From a virus, in IMG/VR virus record IMGVR_UViG_3300023202_000336, positions 64,001 through 128,000 of that record: a stretch of DNA of 64,000 nt; one strand, written 5' to 3'. Made by a program: the position numbers and the translations under genes. A model generated the notes under the pieces. The model searched no databases and was not told the DNA's origin. It saw nothing but the letters and a program-made list of their open reading frames with translations. Positions 43,668 to 56,075 of this stretch are shown piece after piece (the stretch's first letter is position 1; each line of letters begins with the position of its first letter).

Positions 43668-43712
43668 CGAGGGTCGGCCGGTGATTTCTGGATGTTCGGT
43701 CGGCCCTCGTTT
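43668..43712 (+). terminator. Terminator-like hairpin overlapping the first bases of the repeat-like leader
   Basis: CGAGGGTCGGCCG / CGGTCGGCCCTCG then TTT. Confidence 0.55.
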
Positions 43713-43799
43713 ATGCTCGCTCAGGAGCTTTGTATCTGAGACTCGGGCGAAATCCGTCGAGGCCCCGTATCTGAGACGCATCTGATATCGGAGCCTCGT
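43707..43799 (+). CRISPR. Degenerate mini-array in the cas12 leader: one full variant repeat, a 17-nt spacer, a 3'-half repeat and a loop fragment
   Basis: TCGTTTATGCTCGCTCAGGAGCTTTGTATCTGAGAC (43707-43742); AGGCCCCGTATCTGAGAC (43760-43777); GAGCCTCGT near 43791. Confidence 0.75.
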
Positions 43800-43824
43800 C
43801 CCACCAACCGCTAAGGAGAACGAG

Positions 43825-45549
43825 ATGCAAAGAGGACGCGATCCAGCGAATATTTACAGCTTCGCTGCATACGTATACCGCGAGGATTACGAGCGGACCG
43901 GCGATATACTGTTCAATGCGAACCGGTTCGGAAACGCGCTTGTCGCGATCGAACTCCACCGTCGCGAAGAGTGCGAGAAAATACTTCGACAGTGCTCGAA
44001 GGATTACACGGACGCGCGCGCCAAGGAAGACGCGCTCGTCGACCACCTTCAAGCGATCGGCAAGGAGCTGGGTCGATATCGCCAAAAGAAGCGTGAAAAG
44101 AAGACGCCGAAGGAGCTCCGTGAAAAGTACACGGAGGTCGAAGGGCAACTCGAGAAGCATCGAAACAGCGTGGTGCTTCCGATCCGCCGGGAGCTCTACA
44201 GGAGCCCCAAAGTCAAGAAGCTCCTGAAGAAGCTACATGAGAAGGTAACCGCGGATAAAAAAGAAGCGCGGGCCAACAGGAACTGTTACTGGGGGACGGG
44301 TGGTCTCGTGGAGAAGGCCCACGAGAATGACGGAGAAGGGCCGCCTCCGTCATTCAAGCGATTCGACGGAACCGGTCGAATCGGTGTGCAGCTCCAACAG
44401 CAGTCAGGAGCTCCTCCGTGGACCCCGGAGCGGCTCACGAGAGAGAACACTCTCCTGATGCTCGATGTGGACCAGATGCCCGATGATTTCGTCGGCGCCG
44501 ATCTGAACACAAGGTACAAGAAAAGTCAGAAGAAACGCTGTCCGGTCCGTATGAGGATCGGTTCGGAGAAAGCCAAGCCGGTGTGGCTCGACTTCATGGT
44601 CAAGTTCCATCGACCGCTTCCAGAAGGCTGCAAGATCAAAGCAGCCTGGATCCTTTTCAAAAAGGTCGGGACGCATACGAAAACGTATTTTCAAACGCAA
44701 GTGGCGCGTCCCGAGGGGTTCATGAGAGACGACGTCGCCGATGGCGGCCATGTCGCGGTCGATCTTGGCTGGAGAAAGTTCGAGGACGACCGGGTCCGCG
44801 TCGCCTACTGGCTCGGAGATGATGGAGAACAGGGTGAGATCGCTCTCGATCCGGAGCTCCTGAGCCGAGACCGGAAGAACCGGTCACTCCAGTCGATCTA
44901 CGATCGACAGTTCGACTCCATGAAGGAGCTCCTCCATGGCTGGATCACCGAGCACAAGAGTTCGGTTCCGGAGTGGCTGAAGGAGGAGACGAAGACCCTG
45001 CCGATCTGGAGATCGAGGTCCCGCTTGGCAAAGGTCATCATCAAGTGGAGGAAACACCAGTTCGACGGCGACGTCGAACTGTATAAAACCGCCGAAAAGT
45101 GGCGGAAGAAGGACAAGCACCTCTTCGACTGGCACAAGTTCCAGGCGAGGATCATCAGGGAAAAGCGGAAGGCGCTTTTCCGAGAGGAAGCGGCAAAGCT
45201 CGCGAGGCGTTATCGCTGCGTCATATTCGAAGATATGAAGATCAGCGATATGGCCAAGGACTCACCGGTGAGCAGCGATGACATGGATCCAATCAAGGAT
45301 ATCATGAAACTCGCGTCGCCAGGGGAGCTTCGAATGGAGTTCGAGAGTCGATTCCGAGACTCCACCAGACAGAAGACGAAGAACACGACGAGAGAATGTT
45401 CGGAGTGCGGTTTCGTTGACGGAGAGTTCGACTTCGTGAATCTGTACCACGAATGCCCGAACTGTCAGGCGGAGAAGGATCAAGATCTCAACGCCTGCGA
45501 GAACCTCCTCGCACGAGAGTTGGGGCCACCAGACGCTTCGGCCGCTTGA
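43825..45549 (+). CDS. cas12m: Type V CRISPR effector, Cas12m (V-U1)-like, 574 aa
   Basis: RFDGTGRIGVQLQQQSGAPPWTP, CYWGT and V(R)MRIG..W matching the remembered Cas12m pattern; RuvC-I VAVDLGWR (D313), RuvC-II IFED (E469), CSEC/CPNC zinc finger, DQDLNA (D554); adjacent array. Confidence 0.8.
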   Translation: MQRGRDPANIYSFAAYVYREDYERTGDILFNANRFGNALVAIELHRREECEKILRQCSKDYTDARAKEDALVDHLQAIGKELGRYRQKKREKKTPKELREKYTEVEGQLEKHRNSVVLPIRRELYRSPKVKKLLKKLHEKVTADKKEARANRNCYWGTGGLVEKAHENDGEGPPPSFKRFDGTGRIGVQLQQQSGAPPWTPERLTRENTLLMLDVDQMPDDFVGADLNTRYKKSQKKRCPVRMRIGSEKAKPVWLDFMVKFHRPLPEGCKIKAAWILFKKVGTHTKTYFQTQVARPEGFMRDDVADGGHVAVDLGWRKFEDDRVRVAYWLGDDGEQGEIALDPELLSRDRKNRSLQSIYDRQFDSMKELLHGWITEHKSSVPEWLKEETKTLPIWRSRSRLAKVIIKWRKHQFDGDVELYKTAEKWRKKDKHLFDWHKFQARIIREKRKALFREEAAKLARRYRCVIFEDMKISDMAKDSPVSSDDMDPIKDIMKLASPGELRMEFESRFRDSTRQKTKNTTRECSECGFVDGEFDFVNLYHECPNCQAEKDQDLNACENLLARELGPPDASAA

Positions 45550-45556
45550 GAATGTT

Positions 45557-45606
45557 TTCGAGCGGCTACGTCGTCGATAAGATGACGTAGTCGCTCGAAG
45601 TCTTTT
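45557..45606 (+). terminator. Terminator between effector and array leader
   Basis: 19-bp stem with G-U pairs, GATAA loop, then GTCTTTT. Confidence 0.75.
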
Positions 45607-45645
45607 ATGCGATATTGTTTATATATAAAAATTTTGACAGTACTG
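45607..45645 (+). promoter_or_regulatory. AT-rich CRISPR leader/promoter
   Basis: GATATTGTTTATATATAAAAATTTTGACAG in a GC-rich context. Confidence 0.65.
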
Positions 45646-46229
45646 TTAGATATGCCCGCTCAGAGGCTTCGTATCTGAGACGAGGCGCGTGATCTCGAAC
45701 TCCTGGAGTATCCGCGTCGCTTATGCCCGCTCAGAGGCTTCGTATCTGAGACTGGGGCCTGCCAAACCACGCCCGCTTATGCCCGCTCAGAGGCTTCGTA
45801 TCTGAGACAGCGCTAGGTGAAGGCTGGCGGGGATGCCACGACCGTTTATGCCCGCTCAGAGGCTTCGTATCTGAGACGGATCGTTTTGGTGGTATCCCGC
45901 TTATGCCCGCTCAGAGGCTTCGTATCTGAGACGCCAATCCATCCAGGTACCCGCTGATGCCCGCTCAGAGGCTTCGTATCTGAGACTAGGCGCGTGATCT
46001 CGAACTCCTGGAGTATCCGCGCCGCTTATGCCCGCTCAGAGGCTTCGTATCTGAGACCCGCCTCGAGCACCCGTTTCGGGGGCGTTGATATCCCGCTTAT
46101 GCCCGCTCAGAGGCTTCGTATCTGAGACGACCACGCCTGCCGTCTCCGCGAACTCGGCTTCGCCCGCTGATGCCCGCTCAGAGGCTTCGTATCTGAGACG
46201 CCAATCCATCAAAGCCTCGTACCTGAGAC
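45646..46229 (+). CRISPR. CRISPR array: 9 repeats of 36 nt (CCGCTTATGCCCGCTCAGAGGCTTCGTATCTGAGAC) plus a terminal half-repeat; spacers 35,20,33,19,18,35,35,35,(11) nt
   Basis: Parsed by hand; CTCAGA/TCTGAG hairpin near the 3' end followed by AC, as in Cas12m-type repeats. Confidence 0.95.
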
Positions 46230-46248
46230 ACCAACCAAGGAGAAAACC

Positions 46249-46809
46249 ATGCGTTTAGTCTGTGTTCTACTTTTCGTGTTCGGCCTCTGTGCCGAAGAAA
46301 CCTCCAAACTCCCCAGCACCGCCCAGCGTCTCGTCGATCGCCACGATCACGCGCTGGCCGAACTGCGTGAGCGATACCTCGCCGACGTCGCCGACTTGCG
46401 CGAAGACGTCACCCACGACCTCGAGCGGGAACTCAAGAAGACGACCCGTCGCGGCGACCTGGAAGGGGCCCTCGCGATCAAGGAGAAGATCACCGCGCTC
46501 AAGGAGCAAGAGGAGGCGATCGCTGAAGCGCCGACCGATTTCCTCGGACGTAAGAGGCAACCTGAATTCGTCGGAAACACCTACCGATACAGCTCATGGT
46601 GGGTTCGCTTTGATAAGGACGGGTCGGTGAAGACAAACTGGACTTCCCGCGACCTGAGAGACGGTGAATGGAGGATGGAAGGCGAAGAGATCGTCCTCGA
46701 ATTCAACGGGGAAGAGCACGTGAACCGCGCCTTCATCAACGAGGATGGAGATCTGGATTTTAACGGGGCGCAGCTGTTCCGCCTCGAGGAGAAGGACGAG
46801 GACGAATGA
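46249..46809 (+). CDS. Secreted-type protein, paralog A1 (signal peptide, coiled coil, variable C-terminus)
   Basis: SD AAGGAG; hydrophobic N-terminus; KKTTRRGDLEGALAIKEKI. Confidence 0.75.
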   Translation: MRLVCVLLFVFGLCAEETSKLPSTAQRLVDRHDHALAELRERYLADVADLREDVTHDLERELKKTTRRGDLEGALAIKEKITALKEQEEAIAEAPTDFLGRKRQPEFVGNTYRYSSWWVRFDKDGSVKTNWTSRDLRDGEWRMEGEEIVLEFNGEEHVNRAFINEDGDLDFNGAQLFRLEEKDEDE

Positions 46810-47496
46810 TCCTGATCCTGGATCAGTCGCCAGGAAAGGCGGCGAAGGCATACGCAGACAACGACCTCGTGGAGGAAGAACCGTGCGAATTCTGATGGCT
46901 ACGCTATTCTTGTTGCCGACCCTCTCCCTGTCCTCCGAGGAGGAGCAGGACCCGATGCCCGCGTCTGCCAAACGGACCGTGGCCCAGCACGATCGCGAGG
47001 TGCAGCGCCTCAAAGAACGCTACCTGTCCGACCTCGCCGAAATCCGCGAAGACACCCTTCGCGACCTCGAGCGTGACATGGAAAAGACGACCCGTCGCGG
47101 CGACCTCGAAGGGGCCCTTGCGATCAAGGAGAAGATCACTGCGCTCGAGGAGCAAGAAGAAGAGATCGCTGAGGCACCGACGGATTTCCTCGGGAACGCG
47201 AAGAAGCCGTTTTTTGCTGGTAGAACTTTTAACCATGTGCGCGGTGGTGGTTACCATATCGCATTTTCGGAGGATGGAACGTTGACGACGACGAACTGGG
47301 GCCACAGGTACAACGTCGGCGAATGGACCTTTGAGGACGGAACTATCCACATGGTTTTCGAGAACGGCGGTAACCCACATGAAGCAGAGGTAGATCCAGA
47401 AAACCAGAGGCTCACCTTCATGAACGGTGACGTTTACGTGATCTCGGAAGACAAATGATCCTGATCCTGGATCAGTCGCCAGGAAAGGCGGCGAAG
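46805..47496. repeat. Perfect 43-bp direct repeat (46805-46847 and 47454-47496), equal to the start of gene 47455
   Basis: AATGATCCTGATCCTGGATCAGTCGCCAGGAAAGGCGGCGAAG seen twice. Confidence 0.95.
46883..47458 (+). CDS. Secreted-type protein, paralog A2
   Basis: GTG start after GGAGG; near-identical coiled-coil block to A1, divergent C-terminus. Confidence 0.75.
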   Translation: MRILMATLFLLPTLSLSSEEEQDPMPASAKRTVAQHDREVQRLKERYLSDLAEIREDTLRDLERDMEKTTRRGDLEGALAIKEKITALEEQEEEIAEAPTDFLGNAKKPFFAGRTFNHVRGGGYHIAFSEDGTLTTTNWGHRYNVGEWTFEDGTIHMVFENGGNPHEAEVDPENQRLTFMNGDVYVISEDK

Positions 47497-48012
47497 TGCT
47501 ACGCGGATAGAGATATTTCGAGAGGAGTAAATGACGTTATAGAAGTTCTCGAAAACGTGTACCTTCGCCGCCTTCGGCGCGATTATGATGACTCGTCTCC
47601 ATTCGTATCGTGGTGCGGTCTTACGTATCGTAACTTCATGTGGCTTTATTGGCTCGGTTGGTTTCTCGGCATCGAGTACTTCGTGTTAAAAGATAAAGAT
47701 CATAAAAATTCTCTGAAGCTAGATAGCATCAGAACGGAATACGAAAAGCTATCGAAAGGGATGAAGAGACCGCTTCCTCTTTCGTCGTGGCCTCAATCAC
47801 CGTTACCAGCAAAGTTTCGTATGCCGCTCTCAGAGTCGGATCTTCATCCAGCTTCAAAAGGTGACGCGCATCCAGCCGTGTTCGCCTACAGAAACTACTA
47901 CCAGACGTTTCCGGATCGCGAGTGGAGACGTCGAGAAAAACCGTTGTGGTGGGATCCGGCAAGTGCTGAAGATCCCGACGATTTCACCGAGACGATCATG
48001 GCGGTCGTCTAA
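47455..48012 (+). CDS. Divergent pyrimidine-dimer DNA glycosylase-like family protein
   Basis: MILILDQSP..AA..Y.D, PF..W....NF.WL and AYRNYY resemble the phage family starting MNIF.LD. Confidence 0.5.
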   Translation: MILILDQSPGKAAKCYADRDISRGVNDVIEVLENVYLRRLRRDYDDSSPFVSWCGLTYRNFMWLYWLGWFLGIEYFVLKDKDHKNSLKLDSIRTEYEKLSKGMKRPLPLSSWPQSPLPAKFRMPLSESDLHPASKGDAHPAVFAYRNYYQTFPDREWRRREKPLWWDPASAEDPDDFTETIMAVV

Positions 48013-48024
48013 TTACGCGGAGGA

Positions 48025-48627
48025 ATGATGACGAAAACGCGTAGAAAAATGGTTGAGGTTTTAAATACATCGCTTCTCGATTTGGAAGATCTTGCGCTCA
48101 AAAGATTAGAAGAACGGAAGTTACCGGGTGATCCCAGTATTCCAGACGGTCTCCGTAGAGCTATAGAGGCGTTATCGAGAGCTGATCTGAAACCTGTTAC
48201 TAAGGAGTCGATTTGCGATGCTATGGCAGAATTGGCGCAGTTTCCTATATCAGATCCCGGCTATATAGCCTTCCGTAATAGTAAGTTAGATATAGGGGCA
48301 AGTGTACTCGTTGGTACACCGATTTACGTGAAAGCGAAGCGTAATCCGAATAATCATAATTATGCGACTGGCCACGTGTTTTTTGCAAGTTCAAATATCG
48401 ATAATACTTGGTCGTTAGGTATATTAAACAGCGGCACTATTGGTTTGGGAAATAGTCCTCCCGATTCTTTCGATGGAGTAGAGAGTTATTATCTCAGAAT
48501 AGCTACCGCAGACGAGGTACGTAGGACCATAACCGTTATGGTACAGATTATTAACCGCGAAGCTGTCGAAGTTAAAACCATGGGAATAATAGTAGGTTAC
48601 TTAGATACAGCTTTAAAAGAATTGTAA
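48025..48627 (+). CDS. Hypothetical protein (AT-rich)
   Basis: SD GGAGG, 200-aa ORF. Confidence 0.6.
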   Translation: MMTKTRRKMVEVLNTSLLDLEDLALKRLEERKLPGDPSIPDGLRRAIEALSRADLKPVTKESICDAMAELAQFPISDPGYIAFRNSKLDIGASVLVGTPIYVKAKRNPNNHNYATGHVFFASSNIDNTWSLGILNSGTIGLGNSPPDSFDGVESYYLRIATADEVRRTITVMVQIINREAVEVKTMGIIVGYLDTALKEL

Positions 48628-48641
48628 GCAGTATTCTTTTG

Positions 48642-48677
48642 TTGATTATGCCCGCTTAGGAGTTGCGTATCTGAGAC
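48642..48677 (+). repeat. Solitary CRISPR-repeat variant
   Basis: TTGATTATGCCCGCTTAGGAGTTGCGTATCTGAGAC, same 36-nt register as the array repeat. Confidence 0.85.
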
Positions 48678-48690
48678 AAAGCAACCAACA

Positions 48691-48718
48691 GCGACCCACT
48701 GGGTCGTTTTTCTTTTTT
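48691..48718 (+). terminator. Terminator 13 nt downstream of the solitary repeat
   Basis: GCGACCC-ACT-GGGTCGT then TTTTCTTTTTT. Confidence 0.8.
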
Positions 48719-48733
48719 ACGGGAGGATTACCT

Positions 48734-49378
48734 ATGGCAAGACTGAGCCAAAAAGAAGTCATCAACACGATTCGCGATTGCTACGGCGATTTCGAATCGG
48801 TAAGGGAGGGCGATAACGTCCGGGCCTACATCGGCCCGGATATCGAGGTCGTCGTTCCCCCTGGCGGCCCATTCAAGGACCCCGTCGTGGTCAGCGTTCC
48901 CGAGGAACGTATGCACTACGAGTTTCCGATTACCGCGGGTGGCATCGGCGATGCGGTCTTCTTCTTGAGAAAGAAGACCGCATCGCTGAAGGTCAAAGAC
49001 GGCAAGCGGCTCAAGAAAAACGAGCTGATCGCCCGTCGTGCCCTGTGGATGGCCTTCAAGGCCGCAGTCCCGCTCGAGAGCAAAATCCTCCACGTCGAAG
49101 ACGAGGAGGTGCTTTCCGAGAAGGAGCTGTGGAAGAAGGTGCAACCGAGCAGAACCGAAACGAAGTGGTCCATATTTCTCCGGTACCACTTCGGTCGGGC
49201 GCTCAACCTCAGCATCTGCTGGAACCGGGACGAGGTATGGATCGAACCCGACATCCTGACTCCCGGACGGCAGTCCTGGGTGAGTTCGTACAAGAGTGGA
49301 AGGGATCTCATCGCGAAAGCGATCGAATCAATCCGCGACGAGATCAAGGCACTGCGCGGTGCAGTGATTTTCAGGTGA
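48734..49378 (+). CDS. Hypothetical protein
   Basis: SD GGAGG. Confidence 0.65.
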   Translation: MARLSQKEVINTIRDCYGDFESVREGDNVRAYIGPDIEVVVPPGGPFKDPVVVSVPEERMHYEFPITAGGIGDAVFFLRKKTASLKVKDGKRLKKNELIARRALWMAFKAAVPLESKILHVEDEEVLSEKELWKKVQPSRTETKWSIFLRYHFGRALNLSICWNRDEVWIEPDILTPGRQSWVSSYKSGRDLIAKAIESIRDEIKALRGAVIFR

Positions 49379-49380
49379 TC

Positions 49381-50496
49381 ATGAAAGGTTGGAAAGAGCT
49401 ACGGCCGAATGGTCGCCAACTTGCCGAGTACTGCGGAGAAGACGGAATCGGGTTCGACTATATCCGTTTCTCCAAAGGACCCGGCAGAACCGAGGCGAAG
49501 GAATTCGCCTCGGAAGAATCCCTCGCCGAATTCCTCGATTCAGGAGGTTTTACGCGATTTCCCTGCGTGTACGTAAAAGCACGAGGATACAAATCAAAGC
49601 GTAAAGCCAGAGTCCATGTCGGTGAGGGGACGCTCGTGGTAGCCATGGAGAACGGTATCACCGTTTCTCGCATGAGAGTTACCGTGAGCAACAGCTACCA
49701 AGAGGAGAGCTACGTGAGGGACAAAAAAGAGTCTCTGCAGGTGCGCAGAGAAAAAGTTCTCGACCGCTTGAGAGTGGTCGAGGCCAACGAGAGTAATACA
49801 GGCGCTGAATCTGCGTTGGGTTCGCGCTACCGTCATCAACTCAGTGAGATTGAGAAAGCAATTTCACGTGCCGAGGAAAGGGACGAAATGTCCGACATCG
49901 ATAAGACCGAAACCGAGATCGAGAAGACCGAGGTCAGCAAGGCCATCGAACCCCACGAGGAGCAGGAGAAGGCGATCGAGCGCAGCCTCGCGCGTGTCTC
50001 CGCCAGCGACGACGACAAGGGCAAGGCCAAGGAGGCCGAGAAGCCCGCGGACCGCAAGCGTGACCATCGCCCGCGCAATCGTCGTCACGAGATCACGGAT
50101 GAAGATGCGTTCAACTTCATCTTCTACGGCTCGCTGACTCCTCCGAGTACCGAGTACCTCCTCGCCGACGAGGTCCTCGATCGTCACGGCGGCTTCCTCG
50201 ACATCGGCGCCATCAAGCGTCTCATGAAGGCCGGCCGGTGCACCATCTGGCTCAACCCGGATGAAAACCCCGTCGAGCAGCTCGGCGGCGAAAAGGTAAA
50301 ACCCACCTACAACGGGTTCCTGGTCAAGAACGACCACGGGAAGTGGGTCGACCCCGAGTGCCGCGTGAACGGCGTGGTGGTGCGGATGGCCGCGATCGAG
50401 ATCGCCTTCAAATACCGGTACTACGATCGTACCGATACCTACATGATGCAGGTGGACTTCCGCATCCACCGCGCTGCACTCGACGTCGTCGAGTGA
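49381..50496 (+). CDS. Hypothetical protein with probable internal in-frame start at 49888
   Basis: ATG at 49381; second SD-like AGGAAAGGG plus ATG at 49888, where codon bias changes. Confidence 0.55.
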   Translation: MKGWKELRPNGRQLAEYCGEDGIGFDYIRFSKGPGRTEAKEFASEESLAEFLDSGGFTRFPCVYVKARGYKSKRKARVHVGEGTLVVAMENGITVSRMRVTVSNSYQEESYVRDKKESLQVRREKVLDRLRVVEANESNTGAESALGSRYRHQLSEIEKAISRAEERDEMSDIDKTETEIEKTEVSKAIEPHEEQEKAIERSLARVSASDDDKGKAKEAEKPADRKRDHRPRNRRHEITDEDAFNFIFYGSLTPPSTEYLLADEVLDRHGGFLDIGAIKRLMKAGRCTIWLNPDENPVEQLGGEKVKPTYNGFLVKNDHGKWVDPECRVNGVVVRMAAIEIAFKYRYYDRTDTYMMQVDFRIHRAALDVVE

Positions 50497-50540
50497 AGAA
50501 AGAGGGGCCGGCTGTACGGCCGGCCCCTCTTTCTTCTTTA
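50495..50540. terminator. Strong, probably bidirectional terminator
   Basis: 18-bp perfect stem GAAGAAAGAGGGGCCGGC / GCCGGCCCCTCTTTCTTC. Confidence 0.85.
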
Positions 50541-50598
50541 GTTTGGCGGGCGTAATCCCGTCACGGGGTAGTTGTACCCTACAAAAAGGAGGTCGTGT

Positions 50599-51171
50599 AT
50601 GACCATGATAAGAGTGGACGCGACGGATCTCGCGAAAGATCTCGTGAAGGCGGCGTATTCGCATCGCGGGATCATCAGCGAAGGACGTCTCGTCCAGTTT
50701 CGGCTTCTCATCGGGAAAACCGACGTCTCGTTGTCGTCGGTTCTCGAAGAGATAGCCCTCATACCGGGGAACTGGATAGAGGGGAAAGTAACCCCCGAAG
50801 TCGAAGGCAAAGAGAAGTCGGCGCATATGGTCATCAAGATCGTTGCGAACATGATCGGAGCCTACATATCGACGTCGTTCAAGTTCCTGGGAGAAAAGCT
50901 GGAAGCACACAAAAACAATTCAGAAGAAGTCTTCGAAGAGTTCAAGTCGATGAGAAGTCGGCTCCTTCGTGCGTCGAAGCTGATCCAGCCCCTGGTATTT
51001 CTCGATAAGAAGTGGGAGATGGTGGAGCCCCACCATGTCGAAGCAATCGCGGAGAACATCGAAGACGCTCACAAAAGGCTCGGCTCCACCGGTCTTACGA
51101 TGTTCTTGGGTCCGGGGACACTGGACGCAGTCCGCACATGGTACTCCGAACTCGAACTCGAGGAGGAGTAG
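50599..51171 (+). CDS. Hypothetical protein
   Basis: SD AGGAGG, ATG at 50599. Confidence 0.65.
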   Translation: MTMIRVDATDLAKDLVKAAYSHRGIISEGRLVQFRLLIGKTDVSLSSVLEEIALIPGNWIEGKVTPEVEGKEKSAHMVIKIVANMIGAYISTSFKFLGEKLEAHKNNSEEVFEEFKSMRSRLLRASKLIQPLVFLDKKWEMVEPHHVEAIAENIEDAHKRLGSTGLTMFLGPGTLDAVRTWYSELELEEE

Positions 51172-51186
51172 TAGGAGGCACTTTTA

Positions 51187-51882
51187 GTGGATGACGAACC
51201 TCAACCGGAAGGTGTCGAGGTTGAGGTACCCGAGAAGCAGGATGGTCAGCGGTCCCTGAACAGGCACGGCCTGTTCAAACCGTTGACCATCCACTTCAAC
51301 GGTATTTCTGCGGACACCCCTTTACCACGCATACGAGAGCGACTCATATGGTTGAAGGTGTTAATCGAAAATGCCGCGAGGCCTGATAACAATGCCGTTT
51401 ATTCGTTGAAGTTGAAGAGAACGGCAACGATTGATTTCGCTATAAATGCGGTAGAGAGAAAAGCAAAACGTATACATACGCCCCGCAAGACGGCTGAAGG
51501 TTACACGTTGATGAGCAGGTCGGAAGCGTACTATAAGACAGTTGGTTCGGCGATTATGTATCTCGACGCGATGATCAGGTATAACGATTTCGCGCAGCTG
51601 TTAGAAATGATTGATACGCTTCGTCACAATGATCCGTCGGTCCTCGACGAGCTTCCTGAACGTCATTACTCAAAGTACTTTCGGTTCAATAGACCGATAT
51701 ACGGCACCAAATATAAAGAGCTGCACCATAAGTTGTTAAAAGAGAAGGAGTCGTACGAGCGCCGAGCAGCGATATTGGAGGTAATTGGAATTGAGAAGAA
51801 TGCAAAACGCGACACTATCAGAGAGGCCCTCCAGGACATCTTGCCTGAAGGGTTGTCAATCGTTTCGAATGAACCTACGTGA
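51187..51882 (+). CDS. Hypothetical protein
   Basis: SD AGGAGG, GTG start. Confidence 0.65.
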   Translation: MDDEPQPEGVEVEVPEKQDGQRSLNRHGLFKPLTIHFNGISADTPLPRIRERLIWLKVLIENAARPDNNAVYSLKLKRTATIDFAINAVERKAKRIHTPRKTAEGYTLMSRSEAYYKTVGSAIMYLDAMIRYNDFAQLLEMIDTLRHNDPSVLDELPERHYSKYFRFNRPIYGTKYKELHHKLLKEKESYERRAAILEVIGIEKNAKRDTIREALQDILPEGLSIVSNEPT

Positions 51883-52022
51883 GCCCCCTCTTCGTTTCGT
51901 GAATCATTACCCTTGACCCAACAGCGTCGAGGAGTATTGATCTCGGGACGAGAGGAGGCACCAACGGCCTATACGGTCGCGATGCCATCTATCTTATTTT
52001 TTAGCTATCAGTCGGGACCGTC

Positions 52023-52328
52023 GTGAAAACAGTTACAACGCGTATATTAGCCGAAGCGGTGATACTCGATAAGAGCCTCTATCGAGAGATGGGAAGCCCG
52101 TCGAAATTGACGCTGATATATAGCGATGCCGATTTACTGTTGTTTCCCGGATCAACGAAGCAGGTGTACAAGAAGAATAGGTCGATATTAATACCTCTGC
52201 TCGACGAGATAAGAGTCGATGGTGACATCAAGAAAGGCGAATTCGACACTACCGTAGAGTACGCTTGTGGATACCCTATATATAGGGTCAGAGACTGTTT
52301 AACAAAAAGATTTCCTTTTGTTTGCTAG
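52023..52328 (+). CDS. Hypothetical protein
   Basis: GTG-start ORF. Confidence 0.5.
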   Translation: MKTVTTRILAEAVILDKSLYREMGSPSKLTLIYSDADLLLFPGSTKQVYKKNRSILIPLLDEIRVDGDIKKGEFDTTVEYACGYPIYRVRDCLTKRFPFVC

Positions 52329-52340
52329 AAAGGAGCAAAC

Positions 52341-53090
52341 GTGCTAGAATTAGGAGATATCACACTCGCTGTTGATGATAGTAAGCACGCTCTCATTATC
52401 CTCACCGAGAACTTCGATCATGTACCAGAATGGGCACGAACTTCTAAAGAGAACGACAAGGTATCCCTAAATATCAAGGGTGGCCTTGTCGAGTTGGAAG
52501 TCCCATACACAACTCTAAGGCTCGATAGCGATCAGGAAGAGAGTGCGTCAGAGGTGACAGCGCCTCCTCCACCTAATGAGTCGCGCGAAACAGATAAGCC
52601 TAAAAAGAAGAGTAAAAGAAGCGCATATAAGACGCGTTTAAGGGCGACGGCATGGCTCCCCTATTTGAAGGGGGTACTCGCTAAGCACGGGTTTACTTAC
52701 GCGGAAAAGCACGACCACGGCGGAGGCGGTAACCCTAAAATCTGGGAATTCGTCACCGATGGGAAGCGTAAAAATCTTCGGTGTACGGCGTTTACCGAAA
52801 GTCCGAAACGGAAATCAGAGCCTGCGAGGGCTACGCTTAACATCGAGCCTTTCCGTAAGTATAGTGACCTTGTGGACTATTACGCGTTTACATACATGTC
52901 GAAAGAAAAGGTGTATCTCGTCTCGAAGAGTTACATCAATGTAGTAGTCGACGAGCACGTGAAGTCAGTCACCGATAAGCGAGGCGAAGCTCCGGTTACC
53001 TACACCGTCACTCCGCGGCATCTCGACGATATTTGGCTTCGCGAGAGGCGGAAGCCAGCTCATAAGCGCATACTCGAGGTCCTGACGTAG
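52341..53090 (+). CDS. Hypothetical protein
   Basis: SD AAGGAG, GTG start. Confidence 0.6.
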   Translation: MLELGDITLAVDDSKHALIILTENFDHVPEWARTSKENDKVSLNIKGGLVELEVPYTTLRLDSDQEESASEVTAPPPPNESRETDKPKKKSKRSAYKTRLRATAWLPYLKGVLAKHGFTYAEKHDHGGGGNPKIWEFVTDGKRKNLRCTAFTESPKRKSEPARATLNIEPFRKYSDLVDYYAFTYMSKEKVYLVSKSYINVVVDEHVKSVTDKRGEAPVTYTVTPRHLDDIWLRERRKPAHKRILEVLT

Positions 53091-54932
53091 TCATATCGAC
53101 TCGACGAATACCTCAGCGAGCTTCGGCCATCTATTGAGCATGTGATAGATGGCCATCACCCCGAAATTAATGGCGTGTACCACGTCGTCGGTTCTTCTAC
53201 TCATCCGTTTAACGAGTCTCTTCGGAGATCCGCGCGGATTATCGATGGACTCTTCGTAGATGTTAAGGAAGTCACGAAGATGGTCATCGAGGTACTCATC
53301 GTTCTTCGGCAGGAGCACCTGTCCTGACTTGATAAGTTCACAGAGTAGGAGGACCGAGCGTGGTTTGTCGAGTGTAAAGCTCGAACGAGCGCCGATTAGT
53401 TTCGCCGGCTTGTTGTAAAAGACGAGCGGTTTAGTAGTAGCGGTAACGCTATAAGTAAAAGGAATTACTCTTTCAGCCGGCCACCCAGCGGCGTTGAGCA
53501 TCTGCTCCTGAACGTTTCCTTGTCCGCCGTAATCGATAGCTACATATTCGGAATGACTCATACGTGCGACGTTTGCGACGAGTTCCGCTTCGTGTGCATG
53601 ATCTGTCTCATACGGGATCTTATGAAGCCATTTCACTTCTATCACACCCGACGTGAGCACGCCCATCAAGGCGACTGCGGTATTAGATACGAAGTCTTCC
53701 GTATCGGTGGTTTTCTCTTTACCACGTCCGCCCCAGTCAACTCCCACCAGCTGCATGATGTACTGACCGTGAGGCATGTTCTCAGGGTGACACGGTTCGA
53801 CCTTACATGCTTCGCGAATCTGTTCGGCGGTAATAACTTTCGCACCGACGTCGTACGACTCTCCGAGAATCTCGTTATGAAAGACATATGCGGGCTTGTT
53901 CTTCTGAACTTCGAGTATTTCCTGCCACGAATTCGGAGATTCGTAGTGCATAGGAAGGGTCGGTTGTGAGACGTGATATCCTGCGAATTTAGCCCGGCGC
54001 TCGGGAAAATCGTGAACGAAAAATCCGAGCTTACTATTCAGCGGCTTACCGCACTTAGAGCATACGAGCGTCTTGGACCCTAACATCTGAAGCAAGTCAC
54101 CATCGACCGCCGATCGGTTTACACGTTTGCATCCGATTTCCTGACACGGTATATGCCATATCCCTTGAGAAGAGTCCTCCCAGTACAGCTGTATCGGATT
54201 ATCAAATGTTTTCGGCGTACCCGTCATTCGCATGATTTTAAACGGAGACGCACCCATACAGGCTTCGATGATAGGTATGTCCTCGATAGCGAAATCCTGG
54301 GTTTCATCGAGATCTACTTCGTCTGCAGGAACTCCTCGAATGCGGTTCGGATCCCCGTGTGAGTACATGTAGTAAAGATTCGATTCGTTACCAATGCTTC
54401 TCTGTAGTACAGTATCGATGCTTTTATCTCCGATTATGAACCGCTTCGCAGGAGACGTCGAGAGGAACGGTTTCACGTAGTTCTGACTGAATTTACGTAC
54501 CTGCTCGAAGAGAGGCATGACTGTGAGAATGTTGTAGAACGGTTGCGCAGATGCTCTCAGTATCTGAGACGCCGCCATATTTGTACTTTTCGACGTCTGG
54601 CGCCCGGTACGGAAAATCATACGTCTGGGCATATTTTTCAGGCGAAACATCGGTTCGAAGAGAAAATGAGACCACTCGAGAGAGTACGGTTTTCCTCTTA
54701 AACTAAATAACAGCGGGAGCATCTTTGAAAGTGGGCGATCATCGCAGTGGTCGTATTTTTCGAGATACGACTCGACCTGATCCGCGACCTGTAAGGGACT
54801 CCCCGTCATTATGCCGCAACTTTTATTGCACAATTGCGAAAATGCAAGGAGCTTTTCGATGACCAAGCCATTACCCCTTGATGTAACGAAACTTAGGGAT
54901 TTCGTGATAGAATCAAATACGGTCGAAGGCAT
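53091..54932 (-). CDS. terL: Terminase large subunit (true start possibly 54809)
   Basis: GRQTSKST Walker A-like, DEVDLDE Walker B, TGTPKT, CxxxxC/CSKC zinc region, GVDWGG and DDVVHA nuclease motifs. Confidence 0.85.
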   Translation of the reverse strand: MPSTVFDSITKSLSFVTSRGNGLVIEKLLAFSQLCNKSCGIMTGSPLQVADQVESYLEKYDHCDDRPLSKMLPLLFSLRGKPYSLEWSHFLFEPMFRLKNMPRRMIFRTGRQTSKSTNMAASQILRASAQPFYNILTVMPLFEQVRKFSQNYVKPFLSTSPAKRFIIGDKSIDTVLQRSIGNESNLYYMYSHGDPNRIRGVPADEVDLDETQDFAIEDIPIIEACMGASPFKIMRMTGTPKTFDNPIQLYWEDSSQGIWHIPCQEIGCKRVNRSAVDGDLLQMLGSKTLVCSKCGKPLNSKLGFFVHDFPERRAKFAGYHVSQPTLPMHYESPNSWQEILEVQKNKPAYVFHNEILGESYDVGAKVITAEQIREACKVEPCHPENMPHGQYIMQLVGVDWGGRGKEKTTDTEDFVSNTAVALMGVLTSGVIEVKWLHKIPYETDHAHEAELVANVARMSHSEYVAIDYGGQGNVQEQMLNAAGWPAERVIPFTYSVTATTKPLVFYNKPAKLIGARSSFTLDKPRSVLLLCELIKSGQVLLPKNDEYLDDHLRDFLNIYEESIDNPRGSPKRLVKRMSRRTDDVVHAINFGVMAIYHMLNRWPKLAEVFVESI

Positions 54933-55404
54933 CGTCAGAGACGAGAAAACACTTAAGGAGGAGGTAGAAGCTCACGAGCGACTGCTTCGGTGCAAAAAGG
55001 TCGAGGTTCGAGACGTCGTAAGACTCGTGAACACAGTGCAGCCGAACGCTCAGTTCAGGGATCATCAAGATATCCCGGGAGTCTGCGTGATAGCGAGGGT
55101 GCAGCGTCGGCATCATACCGAGACAGTCGTTATGTCCGAACCTCCAGAGAGTGGACCGCTCATCAGGGCCCGTCTACAAGACGTGCTCGATAAAGTCGAG
55201 AGGATGGAGAACGTTTATACGAATCATCTTCTTTATGAAGAGCTTCACCCTTTTACCGACGGGAACGGTCGTTCAGGACGGGCGGTATGGCTATGGCAGA
55301 TGTTGCGTACTGATATACCGTGGGGTTATCGATTCGAGCTACCGTTCCTGCAGAAGTGGTACTATGACTCGTTCTCTATGCTCGCTCAGGAGCCTCGTAT
55401 CTGA
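54859..55404 (+). CDS. fic: Fic-domain protein (AMPylase motif intact)
   Basis: HPFTDGNGRSGR; ESNTVEG; SD AAGGAG. Confidence 0.9.
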   Translation: MTKPLPLDVTKLRDFVIESNTVEGIVRDEKTLKEEVEAHERLLRCKKVEVRDVVRLVNTVQPNAQFRDHQDIPGVCVIARVQRRHHTETVVMSEPPESGPLIRARLQDVLDKVERMENVYTNHLLYEELHPFTDGNGRSGRAVWLWQMLRTDIPWGYRFELPFLQKWYYDSFSMLAQEPRI

Positions 55405-55407
55405 GAC
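55372..55407 (+). repeat. Solitary CRISPR-repeat variant forming the last codons and stop of fic
   Basis: TTCTCTATGCTCGCTCAGGAGCCTCGTATCTGAGAC. Confidence 0.85.
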
Positions 55408-55470
55408 GAGATGGATCATCGAGGTAGGCATATATGAGGCAGATAGACACCCGAGTATAGGAGTATATAT

Positions 55471-55534
55471 GAGAAAGTAATCGCGAGCTACTAATGCACG
55501 AGAAGTAATAGCGAGCTACTAACGTACGAGAAAG
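55471..55534 (+). repeat. Imperfect 28-29-bp tandem repeat (GAGAA(A)GTAAT.GCGAGCTACTAA.G.AC) x2 plus partial
   Basis: Read directly. Confidence 0.8.
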
Positions 55535-55548
55535 AAGAGGATACTAGA

Positions 55549-55860
55549 GTGAAGTATACGAGAGTGAAACATGCGAGAAACAAGAGTGCCGCGACCTCCG
55601 GTGAGAAATTCATTTGGAGTGTATTCGCGTGGTCAGCGTTAGGCGCTATCGTTCTAATAGCCTTTGATTACATATGGCCCTACGCAGTCGCAGCCGCGTT
55701 CTGGTGGTCAGTTTTATGGAGCCTTTGCTGGGTTCTGAATACTCTATTCGACAAAGTTGAGTGGCTGGATGACTGGCTTGTAGGAGGGCCCGGACTGAGA
55801 GAAGTAAAAAGGGAGGTCGCTAAATACCATAAAGAACAAGTATTAAAAAAAGAAAGTTGA
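55549..55860 (+). CDS. Small two-TM membrane protein
   Basis: Trp-rich hydrophobic helices; SD GAGGA. Confidence 0.6.
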   Translation: MKYTRVKHARNKSAATSGEKFIWSVFAWSALGAIVLIAFDYIWPYAVAAAFWWSVLWSLCWVLNTLFDKVEWLDDWLVGGPGLREVKREVAKYHKEQVLKKES

Positions 55861-55879
55861 TAGCGCCGAGTGATTGTTC

Positions 55880-55907
55880 GGGCGGGACAAGCCCCCGCCC
55901 TCTTTTT
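55880..55907 (+). terminator. Rho-independent terminator
   Basis: GGGCGGG / CCCGCCC stem then TCTTTTT. Confidence 0.75.
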
Positions 55908-55909
55908 AA

Positions 55910-55988
55910 ATCGAGTCGAGCTACCGTTCCTGCAGAAGTGGTACTATGACCCGTTCACTATGCTCGCTCAGGAGCTCCGTATCTGAGA
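55910..55988 (+). repeat. 79-bp near-identical copy of the fic 3' end (55328-55406), containing solitary repeat variant 55954-55989
   Basis: ATCGA.TCGAGCTACCGTTCCTGCAGAAGTGGTACTATGAC.CGTTC.CTATGCTCGCTCAGGAGC..CGTATCTGAGA in both places. Confidence 0.92.
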
Positions 55989-56075
55989 TAAAAAAAACTA
56001 GTGAATCAGAAAATAGATGATATAGGGTATAATAAAACGAAGGTAGGCGTATTTCTGTAATAAAGGGGGGACGTC

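Follow-up and report, generated by a model that had tools for sequence, protein, structure and literature searches.

Solitary CRISPR repeats at gene boundaries of a Cas12m-encoding phage as candidate Cas12m handles in phage mRNAs

Introduction

A phage genome that encodes Cas12m and its CRISPR array also carries single copies of the array repeat at the boundaries of other genes, which raises the question of what a repeat outside an array does there. The known roles of Cas effectors are defence, silencing of targets, regulation of a few promoters via single repeat-like RNAs, and being decoyed. The initial annotation of the locus proposed a further one, that the phage uses its effector as an RNA-processing or regulatory factor acting at these copies. 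We followed the proposal in the window (the whole 64,000-nt stretch of DNA analysed, whose coordinates are used below unless marked "genome"), in the complete phage genome of 180,134 bp and in other phages. No paper describing dispersed Cas12m handles in a phage genome was found.

Results

The cas12m locus

The features of the locus are collected in Table 1. The naming of ORF 43825-45549 as cas12m is borne out by solved structures, since its phmmer matches among them include the Cas12m 23vw_A (E 6e-47) and Cas12m2 8hhl (E 1e-24); Pfam also finds a TNB domain in the product. It is the single Cas12m homologue of the genome, in which this fold otherwise occurs only in one TnpB and one TnpB fragment, and Cas1 was not found in the phage genome. 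The array begins 97 nt past the cas12m stop on the same strand, with its repeats spaced 54-71 nt apart. It evolves through duplication (units 1 and 6 are duplicates), and its truncated last unit ends 19 nt ahead of the start codon of ORF 46249, which together with the accessory ORFs up to 48627 is probably transcribed together with the array. A 16-nt match to array spacer 1 adjoins TTG in another phage (G002), so genuine array guides may be short.

Table 1. Coordinates of the features at the cas12m locus and around the solitary repeat copies of the window.
Feature	Position	Strand	Remark
Solitary full-length repeat, GAG/U-A variant	43707..43742	+	Opens a mini-array with one spacer in the cas12m leader
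Spacer-like 16-nt segment TCGGGCGAAATCCGTC	43743..43758	+	Unmatched elsewhere in the phage genome
Degenerate half repeat consisting of loop and 3′ arm	43759..43777	+	47 nt ahead of the cas12m start codon
cas12m, 574 aa	43825..45549	+	RuvC D-E-D positions and zinc ribbon present
20-bp terminator-like hairpin after cas12m	45556..45600	+	Followed by AT-rich array leader 45601-45645
CRISPR array, 9 repeats (AGG/C-G type), 8 spacers	45646..46199	+	Spacers of 18-20 or 33-35 nt
Truncated last array unit, 11 nt from spacer 5 and degenerate half repeat	46200..46229	+	
Four accessory ORFs, from array end to next solitary copy	46249..48627	+	Three are paralogous
Solitary repeat, stem CTTAG/CTGAG with U-G pair	48642..48677	+	14 nt past the stop of ORF 48025-48627
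Intrinsic terminator	48690..48718	+	Starts 12 nt after copy 48642; precedes gene 48734
Fic-domain ORF	54811..55404	+	Final 11 codons and TGA stop inside copy 55372
Solitary repeat	55372..55407	+	Left member of duplication 55328-55406
Small gene, 103 aa	55549..55860	+	Own terminator 55880-55900; bracketed by the duplication
Solitary repeat ending GAT	55954..55989	+	Right member of duplication 55910-55988; 86 nt ahead of ORF 56076

With a Cas12m-family effector, an adjacent array on the same strand and a repeat fold equal to the crRNA scaffold, the locus has the make-up of a type V-M system. It resembles the described systems (Cas12m; MmCas12m2; PMC10442227, PMC11013384) in having an effector that is homologous and similarly sized, a 36-nt repeat with stem and pseudoknot, an array directly downstream of the effector gene, no adaptation module and short effective guides. 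It differs in that the system is hosted by a lytic-type 180-kb phage and that about 26 single repeat units lie outside the array, in phage transcription units. Also, the phage Cas12m retains the canonical RuvC D-E-D positions, unlike Cas12m2 with its non-canonical triad.

Number and placement of the solitary copies

Searching the window with the consensus pattern gave 13 matches on the + strand, nine of them array repeats and four solitary (43711, 48646, 55376 and 55958, i.e. the full copies minus their first 4 nt), with none on the − strand; the expectation from shuffles is 0.00 matches. All four have GAG in the loop where array repeats have AGG, and their stems read CTCAG/CTGAG, or CTTAG/CTGAG with a G-U pair. 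The four full-length copies listed by the initial annotation thus stand, as does its description of them as + strand units with the stem kept and a GAG loop. Its span of 12 kb was far too small, although the dispersal itself holds, as copies extend from 1.3 to 179.6 kb of the genome. The solitary copies comprise 17 of full length and about 9 partial ones, which lie without exception on the + strand and in accessory-gene regions (genome 1.3-4.1 kb, 107.7-120.0 kb and 159.6-179.6 kb). Genome-wide, 22 of 22 pattern matches and every nhmmer hit with E<0.4 fall on the + strand, which holds 161 of the 194 crude ORF calls. The copies lie 0-90 nt past a stop and 14-141 nt ahead of the next start that bears an RBS, which bears out a genome-wide, sense-strand distribution at gene boundaries. 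Among the variants are tandem copies without a spacer (genome 161554/161589), partial or degenerate copies (including genome 4100, 178726 and 179550) and half repeats.

It may be noted that no copy is followed by a T-run on its 3′ side and that separate terminators are found nearby, so the copies do not have the form of intrinsic terminators. A sigma-70 model called no promoter directly upstream of the window copies, a result that applies to sigma-70-like promoters. The claim that the four copies precede genes holds only partly, because copy 48642 has a terminator between itself and gene 48734, and copy 55372 overlaps the end of the Fic ORF. Also, copies 55372 and 55954 are not separate instances as first listed; they are the ends of one 79-nt duplication (55328-55406 and 55910-55988, 94% identity) that flanks gene 55549-55860. 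The product of this gene has no Pfam match and, read by eye, appears to be a membrane protein. Copy 55954 is placed after the terminator of that gene. A TATAAT box can be seen by eye between this copy and ORF 56076, where the sigma-70 scan called no promoter. The loose distance from handle to start, the terminator after one copy and the TATAAT after another mean that some copies cannot be leader elements. A second pair of copies, at genome 2712/2888, is likewise duplicated with its flanks, and these two recent segmental duplications indicate that recombination, besides selection, spreads the copies.

Structure of the repeat

Covariation across the repeats of 25 phage Cas12m loci supports a stem and a pseudoknot of 5 bp each, a fold that agrees with the stem and pseudoknot of the Cas12m2 crRNA (PMC10442227). 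Over these loci 86% of cells are paired vs 34-47% with the partners slid, and double-sided changes number 39 vs 12.6 in shuffles, with 0 of 500 shuffles reaching the observed value. Within this genome alone the covariation is weak: in 16 to 58 of 500 shuffles the observed values are matched or exceeded. Both elements are retained by the solitary copies, with 89.5% of cells paired, and their one-sided changes mostly give G-U pairs, which fit an RNA of the sense strand only. The change from AGG to GAG in the loop is matched by C to T in the 5′ strand of the pseudoknot, and it creates an additional C-G pair; the compensated pseudoknot pair is U-A in 11 copies and C-G in 4. The solitary copies are therefore supported, by their pattern of pairing, as structurally intact handles of the Cas12m type. 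The suggestion that the GAG variant belongs to a second effector becomes unneeded, because GAG is one side of a compensated pair (C-G to U-A), and within the genome only the TnpB and the TnpB fragment share the Cas12m fold.

Occurrence in other phages

In IMG/VR we found 52 phage Cas12m loci, most of which have arrays only (within 10 kb), so the dispersed-handle habit is lineage-specific. The initial annotation counted a lack of conservation in related phages among the outcomes against its proposal, but dispersed copies do recur in distant Cas12m phages (G001/G004 and L120). G001 and G004 overlap as fragments of a single phage type, whose Cas12m has 26% identity to the present one; they carry at least 25 dispersed handles, of which 8 sit 9-18 nt upstream of start codons, and whose stems differ in sequence yet remain complementary (CTTGG/CCAAG, TGCAG/CTGCA, CGCAG/CTGCG). 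The Cas12m of G004 has lost the RuvC D and E, so that one lineage with dispersed handles has a Cas12m without nuclease residues. In L120/L121 there are 5 solitary copies. A repeat copy or mini-array just 5′ of the effector gene, as at 43707-43777 here, is also found in L076, G004 and L103, the last having two tandem handles about 10 nt ahead of the cas12m start codon; this placement suggests autoregulation.

A closer relative than G001/G004 and L120 is G008 (171.5 kb, 79% complete, about 42% aa identity), which shares RNA polymerase genes with this phage (29-40% aa identity). Neither G008 nor G007 has cas12m or handles, including at the orthologous site beside a 613-aa gene, and the absence of copies from the closer relative without cas12m ties the dispersed copies to that gene. 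The handle-bearing regions have no homologues in G007/G008, the 100-117 kb block being an insertion relative to G007, and most genes downstream of copies have no family match.

Discussion

Alternative explanations

The copies exist, keep the fold, lie on the sense strand at the boundaries of genes and are found together with cas12m. Several readings of these observations have to be weighed. Each solitary copy may be a one-guide crRNA gene, the following ~18 nt targeting the host, competing phages or the phage's own DNA; targets could include relatives without the insert, and self-targeting would amount to transcriptional control. Short guides would suffice, as Cas12m requires just a ~17-18-bp heteroduplex (PMC10442227), the array has spacers of 18-20 nt and the match of spacer 1 in G002 permits them. 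Copy 48642 with its 12 nt and terminator resembles a stand-alone crRNA gene, the cas12m leader reads as repeat, 16-nt spacer and half repeat, and the 16 nt past genome copy 172893 equal the junction of repeat 1 and spacer 1 at 15 of 16 positions, adjoining TTC. The initial annotation had likewise allowed one guide per site, which fails in that the 16-18 nt after the copies match nothing above chance: hits in the phage genome are at shuffle level, and seven related genomes gave 13 hits vs 16 for shuffled pseudo-guides. Moreover, the tandem copies of this genome and of L103 leave no room for a spacer, and the supposed guide would often be a generic RBS with start codon, which makes such guides unlikely. 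We are similarly doubtful that the copies are mainly boundaries of portable cassettes, homology patches for swapping accessory genes with an RNA role only secondary. Their restriction to regions without G007/G008 homologues, the insertion relative to G007, the downstream genes mostly lacking a family match, the duplication around a one-gene cassette, the duplicated pair at genome 2712/2888 and a truncated TnpB gene immediately after a copy cluster would all fit. Homology patches, however, need identity and not a fold, whereas here stem and pseudoknot covary and tolerate G-U; the varying stems of G001/G004 would make a poor recombination substrate, and this reading accounts neither for the strict sense orientation nor for the link to cas12m.

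It is very unlikely that the copies act as RNA anti-CRISPR decoys (Racr-like) soaking up a type V-M effector of the host. Such an action is known for viral solitary repeat units (PMC10651486), with which the copies share the form of a single intergenic repeat mimic in a virus with the repeat fold kept. Racr units, however, occur without cas genes, mimic the repeat of the host, are present about once per genome and possess a promoter of their own, as solitary repeat units in general often do (PMC10651486). The copies studied here correspond to the effector and array of the phage itself, which lie in the same genome and make the decoy reading a poor fit; they number about 26, in mRNA leaders and junctions inside transcription units, and relatives without cas12m have none. 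That the copies are functionless, decaying remnants of old arrays seems highly improbable. The partial copies and half repeats, and an array that evolves by duplication without Cas1, would suit decay, but the pairs are largely retained with their changes compensated or wobble, every copy is sense-oriented at a gene boundary, and the same habit is found independently in distant lineages. Scarcely credible is a DNA promoter or terminator signal of the phage multisubunit RNA polymerase with which the CRISPR repeat merely shares a motif: the numerous one-strand copies upstream of genes would agree, but G008 has the polymerase genes and no motif, complementarity (with G-U pairs) is conserved and not sequence, nine promoters at the spacing of the array repeats are implausible, and no U-run follows the hairpin.

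Proposed role and relation to known systems

The reading that we prefer, while giving it a little less than an even chance, is that the copies are Cas12m handles in phage mRNAs serving as sites of processing or translation control, including on the cas12m mRNA itself; binding, cleavage and a regulatory effect of Cas12m at the solitary copies are what we infer from the sequence comparisons. Each handle, made up of a 5′ processing segment, pseudoknot, stem and 3′ GAC, would be embedded in sense transcripts, whether in a leader, in an intercistronic position or at the 3′ end of an accessory-gene unit. The single phage Cas12m would bind it as it binds array repeats and would most likely cut just upstream, by analogy with the cut shown for Cas12m2 on pre-crRNA, by a processing mechanism described as unresolved (PMC10442227). 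The cut would separate cistrons and leave Cas12m at the 5′ end newly formed on the downstream mRNA, whose first ~18 nt, often with the RBS, would be placed in the guide channel. Stability and translation of accessory-gene mRNAs might then follow the level of Cas12m, and the mini-array in its own leader may give feedback on cas12m. The array proper would still yield ordinary guides against foreign DNA. A broader form, which is possible though on the whole doubtful, makes Cas12m a house-keeping RNA factor that cuts transcripts at all of its ~26 handles, stays on the 5′ ends and sets the expression of accessory genes as well as its own; new genes would join the regulon by arriving with a handle.

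The proposed arrangement has partial counterparts. A repeat copy or mini-array just 5′ of the effector gene is also seen in tracr-L, CreR/crlRNA and the units upstream of cas12a (Shmakov et al., PMC10120712). Tracr-L and CreR/crlRNA act via a spacer that partly matches a promoter (PMC10120712), whereas the 16-nt spacer and the pseudo-guides here match the phage genome at chance level only and the copies span more than 100 kb beyond the cas locus. As structured intercistronic sites in polycistronic mRNA the copies would resemble the RNase III sites of phage T7 and engineered Csy4/Cas12a "insulator" hairpins, where cleavage by an endoribonuclease divides the units from one another and fixes the 5′ and 3′ ends. 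Unlike in T7, the role of the enzyme would fall to the CRISPR effector of the phage and not to a host RNase, and this effector would probably stay on its product. The PeSL cassettes of T4-type phages are repeated stem-loop modules around small accessory genes in variable regions. The present copies are like them in the duplications at cassette edges and unlike them in that the unit seems to include no promoter, conserves fold over sequence and is tied to a Cas protein. A phage promoter motif fits less well, given the polymerase genes of G008 without the motif and the covarying stems.

In its broader form the reading would describe a natural, genome-wide, cis-acting post-transcriptional regulon of a class 2 Cas protein, recurring in several unrelated lineages of Cas12m phages. 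If this is true, a phage would be using a CRISPR protein as its own factor for mRNA processing and translation control, independent of host RNases, which would be a new use for such a protein. The handle would also be a compact natural part for insulating synthetic operons. For the phages themselves it would serve as a ready-made module through which newly acquired genes can be expressed, and it would explain why Cas12m systems without adaptation are common in large phages, as in the loci found in IMG/VR.

Solitary repeats in the window and in the whole genome

The occurrence of solitary 36-nt CRISPR repeats outside the array is confirmed and extended by our searches (coordinates of the features are collected in the table below). 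Within the window the consensus proposed in the initial annotation matched 13 times, always on the (+) strand, where shuffled sequences predict 0.00; nine of them are array repeats and four are solitary copies. As had been noted, all four solitary copies carry GAG in the loop in place of the array AGG and have an intact stem (CTCAG/CTGAG; in copy 48642 CTTAG/CTGAG, which includes a U-G pair). Copies 55372 and 55954 are not independent, since they form the ends of one 79-nt duplication (94% identical) that flanks a small gene (55549-55860), terminator included, on both sides. The array looks to be one unit with the four genes that follow it (46249-48627), with the last half repeat of the array at one edge and a solitary copy plus terminator (48642-48718) at the other. 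Within this stretch three paralogous ORFs without assigned function were also seen, with 179-nt and 61-nt repeats (83-90% identical), and the N-terminus of the first resembles a signal peptide by eye.

The phage record, of which the window is bases 64001-128000, is complete at 180,134 bp, with direct terminal repeats measured at 127 bp. Searching the entire record for the pattern gave 22 matches in the forward direction, none in reverse and none in the backwards control, and an nhmmer profile found 17 full-length solitary copies and about 9 partial ones, which carries the dispersal well beyond the 12 kb first described. All of these are on the (+) strand, no (-) match being better than E = 0.4, and no other dispersed 10-mer family of the genome comes near the repeat in abundance. 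The solitary copies cluster at 1.3-4.1 kb, 107.7-120.0 kb and 159.6-179.6 kb, and the whole-genome search gave none in the intervening 100 kb, where the head, RNA polymerase and replication genes lie. Most copies lie between (+) genes, 0-90 nt past a stop codon and 14-141 nt ahead of a start codon that bears a ribosome-binding site. Tandem spacerless copies exist (for example genome 161554/161589, then an extra 11-mer), and in several copies the last 11 nt are repeated once more (GTATCTGAAAC or GTATCTAAGAC) before the ribosome-binding site. The genes 3′ of the copies are mostly without a family match, the exceptions being two AAA-type ATPases and cas12m, while a Fic-domain gene adjoins copy 55372 on its upstream side and is overlapped by it at the 3′ end. 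The duplications include flanking sequence and the copies are confined to lineage-specific regions, which show that recombination spreads them. They resemble PeSL cassette modules and may also be cassette joints, which is compatible with an RNA role. Separately, a unit of about 200 nt occurs in 8-9 copies over both genome ends, each copy including a ribosome-binding site and the beginning of a small ORF.

Coordinates of the repeats, genes and matches described in the text (G numbers denote phage genomes compared, L numbers sequence loci or segments)
Feature	Coordinates	Remarks
cas12m	window 43825-45549	574-aa product
Array	window 45646-46199	nine AGG-loop repeats; 45646-46229 with the terminal half repeat
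Solitary copies	window 43707, 48642, 55372, 55954	GAG loop
Half repeat	window 43759-43777	16 nt 3′ of first solitary copy; 47 nt 5′ of cas12m start codon
Half repeat	window 46211-46229	array end; 19 nt 5′ of ORF 46249
Paralogous ORFs	window 46249-48012	3′ of array
Two tandem 28-nt units	window 55475-55530	between copy 55372 and gene 55549; AAGTAATCGCGAGCTACTAATGCACGAG, 89% identical
TnpB, full-length	genome 143566-144654 (L128:667-1755)	362 aa; no handle nearby
TnpB C-terminal fragment	genome 161687-162109 (with handle cluster 161554-162109, L127:1275-1830)	140 aa; RuvC-II, zinc ribbon, RuvC-III
16 nt after genome copy 172893	genome 172930-172945	GTATCTGAAACGAGGC
Repeat-1/spacer-1 junction	window 45671-45686	preceded by TTC in DNA
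Units of about 200 nt	genome 58-918 and 179640-180069 (L070, L072)	CGACCTGAAGGAGT...; adjoin 127-bp terminal repeat
Spacer 1 (also spacer 6), first 16 nt	window 45682-45697	exact match at G002:170192 (L058:10192)
Spacer 8, first 23 nt	window 46129-46151	match at L130:6980-7002
Cas12m gene of G004	L048:1072-3063	
Array of G002	158453-159752 (L057)	beside cas12m
Array of G003	81623-85077 (L064)	beside cas12m
Solitary handle of G003	G003:66343 (L063:6343)	tRNA T-arm-like sequence GGTTCGACTCC within ~10 nt

Repeat fold and covariation

The covariation alignment was built from 25 phage Cas12m loci, each contributing a single repeat. Twenty rows came from repeat detection alone with no structural selection (19 other phage loci and the array repeat of this phage), and five were chosen otherwise (solitary copy 43707 and one handle, a copy of the crRNA scaffold, from each of G001-G004). 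This alignment strongly supports a stem of 5 bp, together with a 5-bp pseudoknot in which the 5′ ATGCC segment pairs with the loop. Paired cells make up 86%, against 34-47% with the partners slid, and double-sided changes number 39 against 12.6 in shuffles, the observed score being reached by 0 of 500 shuffles; ATGCC with GGC becomes, for example, ATGGC with GCC, or AAGGC with GCCTT. The crRNA of Cas12m2 has the same stem-plus-pseudoknot architecture (PMC10442227). The nhmmer iteration was slow to reach relatives and was replaced by a loop-plus-stem scan with reversed-sequence controls, which selects for pairing and was therefore left out of the covariation evidence. Among the copies of this phage itself 89.5% of cells pair, and the statistics of covariation within this single genome are weak because the copies are so alike. 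The pseudoknot pair C12-G21 of the array copies is U12-A21 in eleven solitary copies, with a new C13-G20 pair, and the remaining one-sided changes are mostly G-U pairs, functional only in sense-strand RNA. The change from AGG to GAG is one side of such a compensated pair; therefore the GAG variant belongs to the same scaffold and is not the mark of the second effector that had been considered.

Effector, array and spacers

The cas12m product matches the solved structures 23vw_A (Cas12m) with E 6e-47 across residues 43-563 and Cas12m2 (8hhl) with E 1e-24, and has all the RuvC D, E and D positions as well as the zinc ribbon. It is the one Cas12m in the genome; a second was sought and rejected, the other matches of the C-terminal domain being a TnpB and a TnpB fragment, the latter immediately 3′ of a cluster of three handle copies. 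Cas1 is absent from the genome. Its effector, array and repeat fold place the locus in type V-M.

Between cas12m and the array lie a terminator-like hairpin and an AT-rich leader. The array looks to have arisen by duplication rather than by spacer acquisition. Its units 1 and 6 are 98% identical across 101 nt, the truncated last unit copies the first 11 nt of spacer 5, and the spacers fall into two length classes (18-20 nt and 33-35 nt). At up to 3 mismatches over 18 nt, no spacer targets the phage genome itself. No exact match of spacer 1 was found in the genome or viral collections. Its first 16 nt match exactly in G002, another 180-kb Cas12m phage (IMGVR_UViG_3300024243_000005), preceded by TTG, a TTN-type PAM, where chance alone would give about 0.003 matches of this type over the 1.8 Mb searched; the ORF hit has no PHROG match. 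This match hints at conflict between phages. Spacer 8 has one match, in a MazG-domain gene adjoining aspS of an uncultured bacterial MAG (CBDIWR010000361.1), with the flank CAA, not TTN, and about 0.1 expected by chance; it may mark a host target or be coincidental.

Phage relatives with and without cas12m

IMG/VR holds 52 loci that encode Cas12m homologues, many on contigs of 100-200 kb, and in most of them the array lies directly 3′ of cas12m and nothing else is seen. Dispersed handles recur in some Cas12m lineages (G001/G004 and L120/L121, the latter with 5 solitary copies), in line with the conservation that had been looked for in related phages. Among relatives carrying cas12m the best is 34% identical. 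G001 and G004 are fragments that overlap (91-98% nucleotide identity along 45 kb) and come from a single phage type, with at least 25 handles across more than 100 kb, whose stems vary yet remain complementary (CTTGG/CCAAG, TGCAG/CTGCA, CGCAG/CTGCG). Eight of these handles are 9-18 nt 5′ of a start codon with a ribosome-binding site, and a subclass lies at the 3′ ends of opposite-strand genes. Their Cas12m has 26% identity to that of this phage, and the G004 protein is probably nuclease-dead, its RuvC-I D being replaced by H and its RuvC-II E by P. It may be noted that, despite this altered RuvC, handles placed 9-18 nt before start codons are densest in G004. A copy in the cas12m leader also occurs in L076 and G004, and L103 has a tandem handle pair about 10 nt 5′ of its cas12m start codon. 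Rctr197k (GenBank KX853510) has an ordinary array and one solitary copy. The arrays of G002 and G003 each contain about 20-30 unlike repeats, with stems that covary inside one array (CGCAG/CTGTG, CACAG/CTGTG, CGTCA/TGACG and others) and variable segments of only about 10-19 nt between them, a form very unusual for a CRISPR array. The likeness to a tRNA T-arm after one solitary handle of G003 is by appearance.

Two genomes without cas12m, G007 (75 kb) and G008 (171.5 kb, 79% complete), are nearer to this phage than G001/G004; 29 of its proteins, phage RNA polymerase genes included, match G008 at about 42% identity. No handles were found in either genome, the scan matches being at control level and nhmmer giving none, and the gap orthologous to the 55372/55954 site, beside a 613-aa gene, also has none. 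Compared with G007, the block at 100-117 kb of this phage, where cas12m lies, is inserted. With both cas12m and handles missing from these genomes, the handles travel with cas12m and not with the phage transcription machinery; the co-occurrence was observed over eight genomes.

Other explanations of the dispersed copies

That the copies are promoters of the phage polymerase is ruled out by the comparison with G008 together with the covarying stems. A sigma-70 scan gave 14 promoters against 10.4 expected, none consistently beside copies. Terminators were rejected on the lack of a U-run 3′ of the copies and the presence of separate terminators nearby, and a protective hairpin 5′ of each copy, which could guard the upstream mRNA once it is cut, is not enriched (Mann-Whitney p = 0.98). 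The copies resemble the viral solitary repeat units known as RNA anti-CRISPRs (Racr), which are defined as being without an associated cas gene (PMC10651486); here such a gene is associated, and a typical Racr unit was rejected on this definition. They also resemble stand-alone repeats beside cas genes (PMC10120712). In spacer-matching autoregulators the spacer partly matches a promoter, a feature that the dispersed copies lack.

The initial annotation further took each site to yield one guide from the adjacent sequence. In the phage genome the 16-18 nt after the copies match nothing above shuffled controls, and the search of phage relatives gave 13 matches in seven relatives against 16 for shuffled sequences. 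One such stretch, after genome copy 172893, equals the repeat-1/spacer-1 junction of the array at 15 of 16 positions. A guide from this site could in principle bind the array start; as 11 of the 16 nt belong to the repeat, the match may be coincidental. The proposal of a Cas12-run regulon is partly supported, among other points by the recurrence in Cas12m relatives; its guide targets and second effector are not. A literature search found no description of such a regulon, and a September 2026 preprint, which presents the Cas12m of a myxophage as the first from any phage, mentions the array alone (10.64898/2026.09.14.751636).

Proposed role of the handles

Cas12m is known to process its own pre-crRNA upstream of the scaffold, in a manner that is unresolved (PMC10442227). 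As full crRNA handles the copies would sit inside sense transcripts, and on the simplest reading the phage Cas12m binds them and probably cuts there. We infer such binding, cutting and an effect on expression. After the cut Cas12m would stay attached to the new 5′ end of the mRNA downstream, whose first ~18 nt, often with the ribosome-binding site, would be placed in the guide channel. As the Fic ORF ends within copy 55372, a cut there would take off the Fic stop codon. In operation the copies might be likened to T7 RNase III sites or to engineered Cas12a or Csy4 insulators. The cistrons would thereby be uncoupled, and the mRNA stability and translation of the accessory genes would be tied to the level of Cas12m, with the same control on cas12m itself through the mini-array at 43707-43777.
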